The notes below the pieces were generated by a model that made no database searches, was not told where the DNA came from, and was given only the letters and a program-made list of their open reading frames with translations. 64,000 nucleotides of DNA from Escherichia coli. GTDB taxonomy: Bacteria > Pseudomonadota > Gammaproteobacteria > Enterobacterales > Enterobacteriaceae. Numbering within the stretch: the first letter of the stretch is position 1; the number at the start of each line of letters is the position of its first letter. The DNA is taken from NCBI RefSeq assembly GCF_965641715.1, contig NZ_OZ282453.1; one strand, written 5' to 3'. The position numbers and the translations under genes are program-made. Positions 4,854 to 32,572 of this stretch are shown piece after piece.

Positions 4854-6047
4854 ATGACGAAAGTGACACGCGCAGTAATTGTGGGAGGCGGGATCGGCGG
4901 TGCGGCAACTGCGCTGTCACTGGCCCGCCTGGGGATCAAAGTGGTGCTGCTGGAAAAGGCGCATGAGATCGGTGAGATTGGCGCGGGCATCCAGTTGGGG
5001 CCAAATGCGTTTTCGGCGCTGGACAGCCTCGGCGTCGGCGAAGTTGCCCGCCAGCGCGCGGTGTTTACCGATCACATTACCATGATGGATGCGGTGAACG
5101 CCGAAGAAGTGGTGTGCATTGAAACCGGGCAGGCCTTTCGTGACCATTTCGGCGGCCCTTACGCGGTGATCCACCGGGTTGATATTCACGCCTCGGTGTG
5201 GGAAGCGGTACTGACGCATCCGGACGTGGAATATCACACCTCCACCAACGTCGTGGATATTCGCGAGACGGAAGACGATGTCACCGTGTTTGACGATCGC
5301 GGCAATAGCTGGACCGGCGATATTCTGATTGGCTGTGACGGCGTGAAGTCAGTGGTGCGCCAGAGCTTATTGGGCGATGCGCCGCGTGTCACCGGACATG
5401 TTGTCTACCGTGCGGTTATCGATCGTGCCGATATGCCGGAAGATTTGCGCATTAACGCACCGGTACTGTGGGCGGGGCCGCATTGTCACTTGGTGCATTA
5501 CCCTTTGCGCGGCGGCAAGCAGTATAACCTGGTGGTAACATTCCACAGCCGCCAGCAGGAAGAGTGGGGCGTGAAGGATGGTAGTAAAGAGGAAGTGCTC
5601 TCTTACTTTGAAGGGATTCACCCCCGTCCGCGCCAGATGTTGGATAAACCGACTTCATGGCGACGCTGGTCAACCGCTGACCGTGAACCGGTGGCGAAGT
5701 GGGGAACGAAGCGCATAACGCTTGTGGGCGATTCGGCCCATCCGGTGGCGCAATATATGGCGCAGGGAGCCTGTATGGCGCTGGAAGATGCAGTAACGCT
5801 GGGTAAGGCGCTGGCGCAGTGTGAGGGTGATGCGGCGCAAGCCTTTGCGCTGTATGAGTCGGTACGAATTCCGCGCACCGCGCGCATCGTCTGGTCGACC
5901 CGTGAAATGGGGCGGGTTTACCACGCCGCAGGGGTAGAACGCCAGGTACGTAATCTGCTGTGGAAAGGGAAATCGCAGGCAGAATTTTATCGCGGCATGG
6001 AGTGGTTGTACGGCTGGAAAGAAGATAACTGTTTGCAACCACGCTGA
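4854..6047 (+). CDS. 3-hydroxybenzoate 6-hydroxylase (FAD-dependent monooxygenase)
   Basis: 397 aa; N-terminal FAD fingerprint VIVGGGIGGAATALSLARLG; DG and GD FAD motifs (GCDGVKS, LVGDSAHP). Confidence 0.85.
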   Translation: MTKVTRAVIVGGGIGGAATALSLARLGIKVVLLEKAHEIGEIGAGIQLGPNAFSALDSLGVGEVARQRAVFTDHITMMDAVNAEEVVCIETGQAFRDHFGGPYAVIHRVDIHASVWEAVLTHPDVEYHTSTNVVDIRETEDDVTVFDDRGNSWTGDILIGCDGVKSVVRQSLLGDAPRVTGHVVYRAVIDRADMPEDLRINAPVLWAGPHCHLVHYPLRGGKQYNLVVTFHSRQQEEWGVKDGSKEEVLSYFEGIHPRPRQMLDKPTSWRRWSTADREPVAKWGTKRITLVGDSAHPVAQYMAQGACMALEDAVTLGKALAQCEGDAAQAFALYESVRIPRTARIVWSTREMGRVYHAAGVERQVRNLLWKGKSQAEFYRGMEWLYGWKEDNCLQPR

Positions 6048-6157
6048 GCACTTCTTCACCCAATCAGGCGGTCCCCTCGCCCCTTCGGGAGAGGGTTAGG
6101 GTGAGGGTAAAAATCTTGCCCGAATTAATCAGTAAGTCAGTTTGTCTGCAAACACAG

Positions 6158-6186
6158 GAGGCGCTAACATAGCGCCTCATTTTTTT
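6158..6186 (+). terminator. intrinsic terminator-like hairpin (GAGGCGCTA-aca-TAGCGCCTC) followed by ATTTTTTT, 12 nt before the dusC start
   Basis: perfect 9-bp inverted repeat plus T7 run read directly from the sequence. Confidence 0.6.
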
Positions 6187-6198
6187 GCGGGTGATGAT

Positions 6199-7149
6199 AT
6201 GCGTGTGTTACTGGCACCGATGGAGGGAGTGCTTGACTCTCTGGTGCGTGAATTGCTGACCGAAGTTAACGACTACGATCTGTGCATCACCGAGTTTGTC
6301 CGCGTGGTGGATCAACTGCTGCCGGTAAAAGTCTTTCATCGCATTTGCCCTGAGTTACAAAACGCCAGCCGGACACCATCCGGTACGCTGGTGCGCGTTC
6401 AGTTGTTAGGTCAGTTCCCACAATGGCTGGCAGAGAACGCCGCCCGTGCGGTGGAATTAGGTTCCTGGGGCGTGGATCTCAATTGCGGCTGCCCGTCGAA
6501 AACGGTTAACGGTAGCGGTGGTGGGGCGACGTTACTCAAAGATCCTGAACTCATCTACCAGGGTGCAAAAGCGATGCGCGAAGCTGTACCGGCGCATTTG
6601 CCCGTCAGCGTGAAAGTGCGTCTGGGCTGGGACAGCGGTGAGAAGAAATTTGAAATCGCCGATGCGGTTCAACAGGCTGGTGCTACGGAGCTGGTGGTGC
6701 ATGGACGGACAAAAGAGCAGGGTTACCGCGCGGAGCATATTGACTGGCAGGCGATTGGCGAGATTCGCCAGCGGCTGAATATTCCGGTGATTGCCAACGG
6801 CGAAATCTGGGACTGGCAGAGCGCGCAACAATGCATTGCGATCAGCGGCTGCGACGCAGTGATGATTGGTCGCGGGGCGCTCAATATTCCCAACCTGAGC
6901 CGGGTAGTAAAATATAACGAACCGCGAATGCCGTGGCCGGAGGTGGTTGCTTTGCTGCAAAAATATACCCGTCTGGAAAAGCAGGGCGATACCGGGTTAT
7001 ATCACGTAGCGCGGATTAAACAGTGGTTGAGTTATTTGCGTAAAGAATACGATGAAGCAACGGAATTATTTCAGCATGTTCGGGTGTTGAATAATTCCCC
7101 TGATATTGCAAGGGCTATTCAGGCAATTGATATCGATAAGCTGCGATAA
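6199..7149 (+). CDS. dusC: tRNA-dihydrouridine(16) synthase DusC
   Basis: translation from [13 protein letters not shown] matches remembered DusC (315 aa); longer ORF from 6142 would place the hairpin and T-run inside the CDS. Confidence 0.93.
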
Positions 7150-7536
7150 TAGTGGAATCGCAGTTTATCAGAGACAATGAATCGCTTATTCAGCGTCATC
7201 ATCTTGTTGCGCTCCTTTCATGAGCTAAGCCACATATTGCCACTGGCGCAAGGAGCGCGCAGGGGGAGGACAATCGCCTCCTCCCCCTGCACCCCCGGGC
7301 TCTGGCGAACAAAATCGCCGCTGCGCGGTACCTTCAGCTTATCCCCTTCGGCTACCGGGTCGGGCGCGAGGAAACGTCCTTGTAAGACGCGCCCTCAGCC
7401 CACATCCATGTGGGCTGCCCCGGCCTTCGGGGAACGCTTCAGCGATTTTGACGCCACCAACACCGGAGCTGTTTGCAAATCAAGTACACAAAATATCTAG
7501 TTCCTGACCTGACAACTTATATGCCATATCTGATTT

Positions 7537-7620
7537 TTAAAATATCATCTTAAATACGCCAGTCACCACCAGTAGCCCAATCAGGAAAATAATCAATACA
7601 GCCCAGAGTATAATTTTCAT
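7537..7620 (-). CDS. yohP: small membrane protein YohP (27 aa)
   Basis: minus-strand ORF translating to MKIILWAVLIIFLIGLLVVTGVFKMIF, verified codon by codon; AGGA RBS upstream; not in the ORF track (below length cutoff). Confidence 0.7.
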   Translation of the reverse strand: MKIILWAVLIIFLIGLLVVTGVFKMIF

Positions 7621-7843
7621 TGGCGTTCCTTTATTTGTGAGTGCTGAATAAGTATAGGAAAAAACGAAGCCCTTTGCCGTTATCCATAAACGATTAAGAT
7701 AAATCGGAAGATATCATTTACTTAGTGTATATTTTTCTGGATATGTCGTTTTATTGCTACTGATGTATTGCCACGCGGAACTAAAAAATATATCGCAACA
7801 CACGGTAATCTCCGCGCACCTTTTCTTACCTGATTATTCCCCC

Positions 7844-9280
7844 ATGAATCGTGATTCCTTTTATCCAGCCATCGCCTGTTTTCCGCTGTTACTGATGCTG
7901 ACCGGGTGTGCGCCTATGCATGAAACCCGCCAGGCGTTAAGCCAGCAAACGCCCGCTGCACAAGTTGACACCGCATTACCCACGGCGCTGAAAAATGGTT
8001 GGCCAGACAGCCAATGGTGGCTGGAGTATCACGATAATCAACTCACTTCATTAATTAACAATGCACTACAGAACGCACCGGATATGCAGGTGGCTGAACA
8101 GCGCATTCAGCTAGCTGAAGCCCAGGCGAAGGCAATTGCCACTCAGGATGGTCCGCAGATCGACTTTTCTGCGGATATGGAGCGGCAAAAAATGTCGGCA
8201 GAAGGGCTAATGGGGCCGTTTGCTCTGAACGATCCGGCCGCAGGTACGACCGGTCCGTGGTACACCAACGGAACTTTTGGCTTAACGGCGGGCTGGCATC
8301 TCGATATCTGGGGAAAGAATCGGGCGGAGGTTACTGCCCGCCTGGGTACGGTTAAAGCACGGGCGGCGGAACGCGAGCAAACCCGCCAATTGCTGGCTGG
8401 CAGCGTAGCCCGCCTGTACTGGGAGTGGCAAACCCAGGCGGCGTTAAACACGGTCTTGCAGCAAATCGAAAAAGAGCAGAACACCATTATCGCGACCGAT
8501 CGCCAGCTATATCAGAACGGGATTACTTCTTCAGTTGAAGGTGTGGAAACCGATATTAATGCCAGCAAAACCCGGCAGCAGCTCAACGATGTCGCGGGGA
8601 AAATGAAAATTATTGAGGCACGGTTAAGCGCACTTACAAATCACCAGACAAAGTCATTGAAGCTTAAACCGGTCGCGTTGCCGAAAGTGGCAAGCCAGCT
8701 TCCTGATGAACTGGGGTACTCCTTACTGGCCCGGCGGGCAGATTTGCAGGCGGCGCACTGGTACGTTGAGTCATCGCTAAGCACCATTGATGCGGCAAAA
8801 GCGGCATTTTATCCTGACATCAACCTGATGGCCTTCCTGCAACAGGATGCGTTGCACTTAAGCGATCTGTTCCGTCATTCCGCGCAGCAAATGGGCGTTA
8901 CGGCAGGCCTGACGCTACCCATTTTCGATAGTGGTCGTCTTAACGCCAATCTCGATATCGCAAAAGCCGAAAGCAACTTGTCTATCGCCAGCTACAACAA
9001 AGCGGTGGTTGAAGCGGTGAATGACGTGGCGCGGGCAGCCAGTCAGGTTCAGACACTGGCGGAGAAAAACCAGCATCAGGCGCAAATTGAGCGCGATGCC
9101 TTGCGTGTGGTAGGTCTTGCGCAGGCCCGCTTTAACGCGGGCATCATTGCTGGTTCCCGCGTCAGCGAAGCCAGAATCCCCGCGCTGCGTGAGCGGGCCA
9201 ATGGCCTGTTATTGCAAGGGCAGTGGCTGGATGCCTCCATTCAACTCACTGGTGCGTTGGGCGGGGGTTACAAACGCTGA
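7844..9280 (+). CDS. mdtQ: outer-membrane efflux lipoprotein (OMF/NodT family), uninterrupted
   Basis: 478 aa; lipoprotein signal with lipobox LTGC; OMF coiled-coil repeats; single open frame. Confidence 0.85.
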   Translation: MNRDSFYPAIACFPLLLMLTGCAPMHETRQALSQQTPAAQVDTALPTALKNGWPDSQWWLEYHDNQLTSLINNALQNAPDMQVAEQRIQLAEAQAKAIATQDGPQIDFSADMERQKMSAEGLMGPFALNDPAAGTTGPWYTNGTFGLTAGWHLDIWGKNRAEVTARLGTVKARAAEREQTRQLLAGSVARLYWEWQTQAALNTVLQQIEKEQNTIIATDRQLYQNGITSSVEGVETDINASKTRQQLNDVAGKMKIIEARLSALTNHQTKSLKLKPVALPKVASQLPDELGYSLLARRADLQAAHWYVESSLSTIDAAKAAFYPDINLMAFLQQDALHLSDLFRHSAQQMGVTAGLTLPIFDSGRLNANLDIAKAESNLSIASYNKAVVEAVNDVARAASQVQTLAEKNQHQAQIERDALRVVGLAQARFNAGIIAGSRVSEARIPALRERANGLLLQGQWLDASIQLTGALGGGYKR

Positions 9281-9332
9281 TGATATGTGACTTCTATACT
9301 TAACGTTTATTCAGCGTTAAGTGGAGAACTCG

Positions 9333-10094
9333 ATGGCACAGGTAGCGATTATTACCGCCTCCGATTCGGGGATCGGCAAAGAGTGCGCGTTATTACTGGC
9401 GCAGCAAGGGTTTGATATTGGCATTACCTGGCACTCTGATGAAGAAGGGGCAAAAGATACCGCGCGTGAGGTGGTTAGCCACGGCGTACGTGCGGAGATC
9501 GTGCAACTGGATCTCGGCAATCTGCCAGAAGGTGCGCAGGCGCTGGAGAAACTCATTCAACGGCTGGGGCGTATTGATGTGCTGGTGAATAATGCGGGCG
9601 CAATGACCAAAGCGCCGTTTCTTGATATGGCTTTCGATGAGTGGCGCAAGATTTTTACCGTTGATGTCGATGGTGCATTTTTATGCTCACAAATTGCGGC
9701 CCGCCAGATGGTGAAACAAGGGCAGGGCGGTCGCATCATCAACATTACGTCGGTACATGAACATACGCCGCTGCCGGATGCCAGCGCCTACACAGCCGCT
9801 AAACATGCGCTCGGTGGGTTAACCAAAGCGATGGCGCTGGAGCTGGTCAGACATAAGATTTTGGTGAACGCAGTCGCGCCTGGGGCGATCGCCACGCCAA
9901 TGAATGGCATGGATGACAGCGACGTGAAGCCCGACGCGGAGCCTTCGATTCCTCTGCGGCGTTTTGGCGCAACGCATGAGATTGCCAGCCTGGTAGCGTG
10001 GCTGTGCTCAGAGGGCGCAAATTACACCACCGGGCAGTCGTTGATAGTGGATGGCGGCTTTATGTTGGCGAATCCGCAGTTCAACCCAGAATAG
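9333..10094 (+). CDS. yohF: short-chain dehydrogenase/reductase YohF
   Basis: Rossmann TASDSGIGKECA, catalytic YxxxK (YTAAKHA); start at MAQVAII with GGAG RBS. Confidence 0.9.
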   Translation: MAQVAIITASDSGIGKECALLLAQQGFDIGITWHSDEEGAKDTAREVVSHGVRAEIVQLDLGNLPEGAQALEKLIQRLGRIDVLVNNAGAMTKAPFLDMAFDEWRKIFTVDVDGAFLCSQIAARQMVKQGQGGRIINITSVHEHTPLPDASAYTAAKHALGGLTKAMALELVRHKILVNAVAPGAIATPMNGMDDSDVKPDAEPSIPLRRFGATHEIASLVAWLCSEGANYTTGQSLIVDGGFMLANPQFNPE

Positions 10095-20168: not shown

Positions 20169-20900
20169 ATGAAGATGTTGCGCGATCCGCTGTTCTGGCT
20201 CATTGCTTTGTTTGTGGCACTGATTTTCTGGCTGCCTTACAGCCAGCCGCTGTTTGCTGCCTTGTTCCCACAACTGCCACGACCCGTTTATCAGCAAGAA
20301 AGTTTTGCAGCTCTGGCACTGGCTCATTTCTGGCTGGTGGGAATTTCGAGTTTGTTTGCGGTGATCATTGGTACTGGTGCCGGAATTGCTGTCACTCGCC
20401 CGTGGGGCGCGGAATTTCGCCCACTGGTGGAAACTATTGCCGCCGTTGGACAGACTTTTCCGCCCGTCGCAGTGCTGGCGATCGCCGTTCCGGTGATCGG
20501 GTTTGGTCTGCAACCAGCGATTATCGCCTTGATCCTTTACGGTGTGCTGCCCGTCCTGCAGGCGACACTTGCCGGGCTGGGAGCGATTGATGCCAGCGTG
20601 ACAGAAGTTGCGAAGGGTATGGGAATGAGTCGTGGTCAGCGACTGCGTAAGGTCGAGCTACCGCTGGCGGCTCCGGTGATTCTGGCGGGCGTGCGAACTT
20701 CGGTGATTATCAACATTGGTACGGCGACGATCGCCTCAACGGTAGGGGCCAGCACGCTGGGTACGCCCATCATCATCGGGCTTAGCGGATTTAATACCGC
20801 GTATGTGATCCAGGGGGCGTTACTGGTGGCACTGGCGGCGATCATCGCAGACCGCCTGTTTGAAAGGCTGGTGCAGGCGCTTAGCCAGCACGCAAAATAA
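20169..20900 (+). CDS. yehW: ABC transporter permease
   Basis: 243 aa polytopic permease, 4 nt after the yehX stop. Confidence 0.9.
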
Positions 20901-20988
20901 AGGTATAACCTGCGAGCATGACGCCACCAATTCCGCCTAACGCCATAAACAGGAACAGGGCGATGACCCCAATTTTAGCTATGCGCAT
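20881..20988 (-). CDS. yohO: small membrane protein YohO (35 aa)
   Basis: minus-strand ORF translating to [35 protein letters not shown], verified codon by codon; AAGGAG RBS 6 nt upstream; 3' end overlaps the yehW 3' end by 20 nt; not in the ORF track. Confidence 0.7.
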
Positions 20989-32482: not shown

Positions 32483-32572
32483 ATGGACACGCTGACACAA
32501 AAGTTAACCGTGCTCATTGCTGTACTGGAGCTATTAGTAGCTCTGTTACGGTTGATTGATTTGTTGAAGTAA
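32483..32572 (+). CDS. zorO: type I toxin, 29-aa hydrophobic peptide (ZorO/ShoB-like)
   Basis: ORF MDTLTQKLTVLIAVLELLVALLRLIDLLK with AAGGAG RBS 5 nt upstream, verified codon by codon; long leader from predicted TSS near 32308; not in the ORF track. Confidence 0.7.
   Translation: MDTLTQKLTVLIAVLELLVALLRLIDLLK

Follow-up and report, generated by a model that had tools for sequence, protein, structure and literature searches.

YohP belongs to a class of stress-regulated bacterial proteins of fewer than 50 amino acids with one transmembrane helix, a class that also holds YncL, AcrZ, MgtS and MgrB, to which it bears no sequence relationship. AcrZ, MgtS and MgrB bind specific partner proteins (PMC12719787), whereas no partner is known for YohP; YncL, like YohP, depolarizes the membrane and condenses the nucleoid (PMC12542507). 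YohP is an integral inner-membrane protein, oriented mostly with its N-terminus out and its C-terminus in, and its SDS-resistant dimers require Gly15 (PMC7549839). The protein is recognized post-translationally by SRP/FtsY and is then inserted by SecYEG or YidC (PMC7549839). Additionally, the yohP mRNA is found at the membrane without being translated, a localization helped by its uracil content and secondary structure (10.1101/2022.11.21.517368). YohP is currently of interest as a model for the insertion of very small membrane proteins, through post-translational SRP recognition and mRNA targeting, and also for a stress-induced state termed "metabolic silencing".

The expression of yohP has been followed in two organisms. 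The Salmonella "sRNA" STnc1330, first taken as non-coding, encodes YohP, and the Flag-tagged Salmonella protein, plentiful in stationary phase, almost disappears when rpoS is mutated (PMC5437024). Chromosomally SPA-tagged YohP of E. coli, expressed from its own promoter, goes up as stationary phase proceeds, and also in minimal medium and when oxygen is limiting; an induction by SDS/EDTA and H2O2 that had been reported earlier failed to reproduce (PMC12719787). Production of YohP leads to a sublethal depolarization of the membrane and, in turn, to metabolic silencing; with the loss of membrane potential, phage-shock proteins are induced, (p)ppGpp levels rise, the nucleoid condenses and protein synthesis falls (PMC12719787, PMC12542507). 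Furthermore, YohP interferes with the oligomerization of magainin-2, and a yohP deletion strain is more sensitive to ciprofloxacin and to oxidative stress (PMC12719787, PMC12542507). Most YohP phenotypes were obtained by premature expression from a plasmid in exponential phase, a limitation listed by the authors, who also report that the native protein in stationary phase reaches the levels obtained from the plasmid, that deletion of yohP has only minor proteomic effects, and that the deletion has no growth phenotype under inducing conditions (PMC12719787).

Here, we describe the copy of this gene carried by a 64,000-nucleotide stretch of E. coli DNA, hereafter the window. It is almost certain, in our judgment, that the minus-strand ORF at 7537-7620 is yohP, a genuine gene for a 27-residue single-pass inner-membrane protein. 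The encoded protein is identical to the 27-aa YohP of K-12, and the two loci share the convergent neighbor dusC, the divergent neighbor mdtQ, the ribosome-binding site and the 5' region; identity with a K-12-type genome is 100% from position 7535, 2 nt past the yohP stop codon, to at least position 7700. Only the surroundings differ from K-12, in that the spacer towards dusC is inverted in the window from 2 nt after the yohP stop codon onward. The gene is already known, annotated and experimentally characterized, and the finding is therefore correct but ordinary. Its rediscovery adds little that is new, apart from showing that a reader can pick a genuine 27-codon gene out of raw sequence. What the window copy does add is a locus at which the protein, the ribosome-binding site and the promoter are invariant while the 3' flank varies.

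Identity and annotation of the 27-codon reading frame

Read on the minus strand, positions 7537-7620 of the window run ATG AAA ATT ... ATA TTT TAA, comprising 27 codons and the TAA stop codon and encoding MKIILWAVLIIFLIGLLVVTGVFKMIF. A Shine-Dalgarno sequence, AAGGA, lies on the same strand at 7627-7631, 6 nt before the ATG, and its pairing with the anti-Shine-Dalgarno sequence is worth -5.6 kcal/mol. An earlier, sequence-only reading of this DNA had placed a minus-strand ORF with a ribosome-binding site here, and its coordinates and the ribosome-binding site were borne out; the peptide that it wrote down is the translation obtained here. It had also set the gene between dusC and mdtQ, and this is where the gene lies. 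The dusC gene (6199-7149, plus strand) is convergent with yohP, the last ~13 nt of dusC falling in a strain-variable spacer. The mdtQ gene (7844-9280, plus strand) is divergent from yohP and encodes an intact protein of 478 aa; it is intact in many other strains as well, and is a frameshifted pseudogene in K-12.

Short reading frames are abundant in this DNA, with 81 ORFs of at least 20 aa overlapping the 4.5 kb from 5500 to 10000 (yohP among those listed) and 348 ATG-initiated ORFs of 20-50 aa in the window as a whole, so that a 27-codon ORF on its own means little. The yohP frame ranks first of the 348 by hydrophobicity, the maximum of its 19-residue Kyte-Doolittle profile being 2.96 and the mean 2.47. 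The single-helix membrane peptide proposed from the sequence is borne out as well. A strongly hydrophobic stretch and a Shine-Dalgarno match occur together in just two of the 348 ORFs, yohP and a 29-aa hydrophobic ORF, MDTLTQKLTVLIAVLELLVALLRLIDLLK, at 32483-32572 on the plus strand. The latter has a 5-nt Shine-Dalgarno match and is probably, by its sequence, the type I toxin ZorO. NCBIfam gives no hit for it, and the best RefSeq matches leave it unannotated, yehK being the only gene listed there; a 501-base query containing it is found at a median of five places per genome. Another small membrane protein of the window, the 35-aa YohO (20881-20988, minus strand; NCBIfam NF010225, 80.1 bits against a cut-off of 57), narrowly misses the hydrophobicity cut-off that was applied to the 348 short ORFs.

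The reality of yohP is settled instead by its conservation and by family models. The peptide matches the NCBIfam equivalog model NF011345, for which the cut-off is 58, with 67.3 bits along all of its 27 residues, and the Pfam family PF25659 with 50.6 bits against a cut-off of 27, its residues 1-27 covering profile positions 1-28 of 28. A search of the PDB at E-values up to 1 returned no solved structure. The 801 bases around the ORF align to E. coli chromosomes at up to 99.9% identity, where RefSeq lists dusC, yohP and mdtQ, and the "small membrane protein YohP" is WP_000691708.1 both in the best-matching strain, FCI1, and in a K-12-type genome. The gene has the locus tag b4679 in MG1655, with the protein accessions YP_002791249.1 and WP_000691708.1. 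The exact peptide is likewise named YohP in a collection of 15 billion proteins, where it is found on at least 1,000 contigs.

This annotation extends across the species. A 221-nt segment centered on yohP is present in 5,421 of 5,426 complete E. coli genomes, 5,006 of them at 99% identity or more, and yohP is annotated in RefSeq at the same position in about 5,380 of the 5,426. When records were sampled down the ranking of matches to the 221 bases, 29 of 30 had yohP annotated under the match. The name yohP, which had been assigned from the letters of the window, is thus the one carried by the RefSeq annotation (WP_000691708.1) and by both family models above their cut-offs. The description of the gene as unlisted is right for the first-stage ORF track, which had a length cut-off, but not for the public annotation, in which the gene is present. 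Finally, the translation signal on which the sequence-only reading was to stand or fall is on record, since tagged YohP has been detected in E. coli and in Salmonella (PMC12719787, PMC5437024), and the attempt at refutation failed.

Conservation, loss and expression signals of yohP

Orthologues were sought at 80 DusC-anchored loci from different Enterobacterales species, the flanks of which were searched by phmmer and tblastn. A yohP orthologue was found at 17 of the 80, in Escherichia, Citrobacter, two Salmonella enterica subspecies, Enterobacter quasihormaechei and Franconibacter, and in 16 of these 17 it comes immediately after dusC and is encoded on the other strand. Compared with the window yohP, the orthologues have pS values of 0.48-0.76 and pN values of 0.03-0.08, and the variable sites at codon positions 1, 2 and 3 number 10, 1 and 21, respectively. 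Frame-breaking indels are absent from all 17 loci. The C-terminal 14 residues are invariant, as are K2, G15, G21 and K24, and a purine tract of the AAGG/AGGA/GGAG type occupies the Shine-Dalgarno position at every one of the 17 loci. The Salmonella orthologue, MKILLWAILIIFLIGLLVVTGVFKMIF, has two conservative changes and occupies the same position next to dusC. This pattern of substitution shows strong purifying selection on the YohP protein.

The gene has also been lost naturally several times and is dispensable in nature, as is evident from losses in E. coli 720632, E. albertii NBRC 107761 and Citrobacter. An IS1-associated deletion in 720632 takes the 5' part of yohP and leaves its last ~41 nt, a 414-bp deletion in NBRC 107761 removes yohP along with its promoter, and in four Citrobacter species mdtQ directly follows dusC and yohP is absent. 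Most of the other Enterobacterales loci examined have no yohP next to dusC. The places of loss in the loci compared are 2501-2560 of L003 and 1208-1226 of L007, with further cases in L012, L013, L016 and L022.

Promoters used by sigma-S have a C just upstream of the -10 hexamer and a -10 box of the TAYACT type. A candidate -10 region of this kind, CCTATACTTA, was recognized from its sequence only at 7649-7658 on the minus strand; it contains TATACT at 7651-7656, 31-36 nt upstream of the yohP ATG, with a C just before the hexamer. The -10 box CCTATACT is common to Escherichia, Salmonella and Citrobacter and has the form CTACACTT in Enterobacter, and this conserved box looks like a sigma-S-type element. 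Because the CCTATACTT element lies ~31-37 nt upstream of the ATG, the transcript would have a short leader. The yohP coding sequence is 40.5% U, against 24.9% T across the window, which fits the uracil-dependent targeting described for this mRNA (10.1101/2022.11.21.517368). A scan of 7100-7900 detected no intrinsic terminator downstream of yohP, and no Rfam family matched the region of the ORF.

On these features, the window copy would be read from a sigma-S-type promoter through a short leader and an AAGGA ribosome-binding site into a U-rich coding sequence, and its output would depend on RpoS and increase in stationary phase, in minimal medium and when oxygen is scarce. The mRNA would localize to the membrane independently of translation, and the finished peptide would pass to SRP/FtsY and from there to SecYEG or YidC. 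The helix is flanked by Lys2 and Lys24 and contains Gly15 and Gly21; the roles of G15 and of the lysines are drawn from published work (PMC7549839, PMC12542507). Given the identical protein and the conserved promoter and ribosome-binding site, we infer that YohP of the window strain would behave as it does in K-12.

Alternative readings of the peptide and its transcript

The type I toxins TisB and HokB are like YohP in outline, being small helical peptides that lower the membrane potential and lead towards dormancy, and the authors of the E. coli study note TisB-like traits of YohP in its size, its single helix with positive flanks and the loss of membrane potential (PMC12719787). YohP might on these grounds be the toxin of an unrecognized type I toxin-antitoxin pair, held in check by an antisense RNA, and the plus strand does carry a promoter-like site, at 7521-7548, in antisense orientation over the 3' end of the gene. 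This weak sigma-70-like site, however, is a single 9/12 consensus match where shuffled controls yield a mean of 1.5, and its -35 half falls in the strain-variable spacer (boundary at 7535), so that it is not conserved; the site was accordingly rejected as evidence for a toxin-antitoxin pair. The depolarization caused by YohP is, moreover, sublethal and goes with slower growth, native levels being comparable to those from the plasmid (PMC12719787, PMC12542507), and the RefSeq records inspected contain no annotation of an antitoxin RNA. YohP differs from TisB and HokB in that no antisense antitoxin RNA was found, in its sublethal effect, in having a sigma-S promoter rather than SOS control, and in lacking sequence similarity to them. 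We consider the toxin reading very unlikely.

A second reading would make the yohP transcript mainly a regulatory sRNA, with the ORF incidental or secondary to it. The original cataloguing of STnc1330 as non-coding in Salmonella (PMC5437024) speaks for it, as does a transcript that is short and abundant. The coding sequence argues otherwise: the orthologues have pN/pS ratios of ~0.05-0.15, with one variable second codon position against 21 third positions, and substitutions so overwhelmingly synonymous point to selection on the YohP protein rather than on the RNA. The tagged protein has been detected in both E. coli and Salmonella, and Rfam gives no match at the ORF; a transcript that both encodes YohP and acts as an RNA would be compatible with what was examined here. 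A mainly regulatory RNA is therefore extremely improbable, and the protein-coding gene yohP is the reading that we retain. A functionless chance ORF in an AT-rich intergenic region has a negligible probability, for although short ORFs are plentiful, by the counts given above, this one has a ribosome-binding site, a conserved promoter, a pattern of purifying selection across genera, scores that pass the two curated models NF011345 and PF25659, and translation shown by tagging experiments, which together refute it.

The strain-variable spacer and its structured repeat

The spacer between dusC and yohP, approximately 7137-7534, is inverted relative to K-12. On the yohP side its boundary lies 2 nt beyond the stop codon, and on the dusC side it falls within the final ~13 nt of the gene. 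Because the variable spacer begins inside the last dusC codons, the end of dusC (7137-7149) differs from that of K-12; DusC has 316 aa here and 315 aa in K-12, and the protein accessions differ. The 277-nt core of the spacer, 7189-7465, is 88% identical to K-12 on the opposite strand. The arrangement of the window occurs in 1,999 (~37%) of the 5,426 complete E. coli genomes and that of K-12 in 3,305 (~61%), and both are present in other Escherichia species. In Salmonella and Citrobacter, by contrast, the dusC-yohP spacer is only ~35-105 nt long and is without the ~280-nt repeat that is found in Escherichia.

A clean inversion of the spacer in situ was considered and rejected. The 40-70 nt that separate the repeat from the genes are not the same in the two arrangements either, at dusC-yohP as well as at aqpZ-lysO, where further copies of the repeat lie, and the window copy is nearer to the aqpZ-lysO copies (93-95%) than to the K-12 allele of its own locus (88.6%). 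A 10-nt inverted repeat flanks the repeat and yohP (7185-7194 and 7643-7652), about what is expected by chance. As the source of the difference between strains, a replacement, or a recombination between copies, looks likelier than a clean local flip.

The core of this spacer is a structured, GC-rich repeat of ~260-280 nt (7189-7465, minus strand) whose start is ~70 nt past the end of yohP; it forms the 3' flank of the gene and lies outside it. It is unannotated and occurs at a median of three places per genome, and it is this neighboring repeat, not yohP, that might repay further work. Other copies lie at aqpZ-lysO, in both orientations among strains, and at putP-efeU, and a relative with ~90% identity to E. 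coli carries one in its copA-ybaP-ybaK region. Repeat coordinates were recorded as 7206-7460 (minus strand) in the window, 2001-2270 in L085, 2001-2260 in L087, ~1294-1617 in L088 and ~7087-7410 in L096. Orientations were counted over 120 metagenome hits, each oriented by the strand that reads AUGGAU. The dusC-yohP repeat was in the K-12 orientation in ~40 hits and in the opposite orientation, the window form, in ~14; the corresponding counts for the aqpZ-lysO repeat were ~34 and 3. Separately, in three metagenome contigs, L110 among them, the repeat is flanked by lysO or aqpZ at one end and by dusC or yohP-mdtQ at the other. Such joined contigs reflect either misassembly across the repeat or a real recombination between copies ~1.3 Mb apart.

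The repeat folds into an outer helix around two hairpins, followed by a GC-rich hairpin and then a terminal helix. Across 71 distinct copies, the share of paired cells is 94.5%, a figure inflated because the structure was derived from the same repeat sequences; with the partners slid, the share is 41-47%. The covariation score is 0.113, and 0.035-0.055 in the slid controls. Across many copies, four pairs alternate cleanly between two Watson-Crick types, and the outer helix is present with covariation. Alignment folding gives an energy of -112.6 for the AUGGAU strand and -90.8 for the opposite one. Its lower energy and its frequent U-G pairs suggest that the AUGGAU strand is the functional one. 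It coincides with the yohP strand in the window and with the dusC strand in K-12.

The best Rfam match of the repeat is TwoAYGGAY (RF01731), a motif of two adjacent hairpins with AYGGAY terminal loops inside an outer helix. The match spans the full model, positions 1-168, and stays below the gathering score of 43 bits, with 25.9 bits for the window (7312-7451, minus strand), 30.9 for L002 and 30.6 for L085, so that the resemblance of the repeat to this motif is sub-threshold. The first hairpin, CAGCCCAC-AUGGAU-GUGGGCUG, is exact; since the search pattern included this hairpin, its invariance across copies proves nothing. For the second loop, the E. coli copies have AAGGAC or AGGGAU and the divergent copy L193 has AUGGAU. 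A literature search on the hairpin sequence and the gene neighborhoods found no published description of the repeat.

Three metagenome copies (L110, L104 and L089) are broken exactly in the loop of the second hairpin, as ACAGGGAT on one side of the break and GTTACC on the other, the junction in RNA letters being ACAGGGAU followed by GUUACC. L110 is the one copy in which both junctions are visible. Its insert is ~1.37 kb long, with the pattern at oriented offset 384, and encodes a 355-aa transposase of the IS110 family (Pfam PF01548 and PF02371). Furthermore, two genomes have an "IS110 family RNA-guided transposase" at the copA-ybaP-ybaK site in their RefSeq annotation. The exact insertion in the second loop and this RefSeq annotation suggest that the second hairpin loop is a programmed target site for an IS110-family element.

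It is conceivable, though on present evidence rather unlikely, that transcription of the repeat provides yohP with a structured 3' UTR or with a small RNA derived from its 3' end, and in K-12-type strains provides dusC with it instead. If this were so, the orientation polymorphism (~37% against 61% of genomes) would rewire which of the two convergent genes carries the structured RNA module, and the same module would be a natural target of an IS110-family, bridge-RNA-guided insertion sequence.
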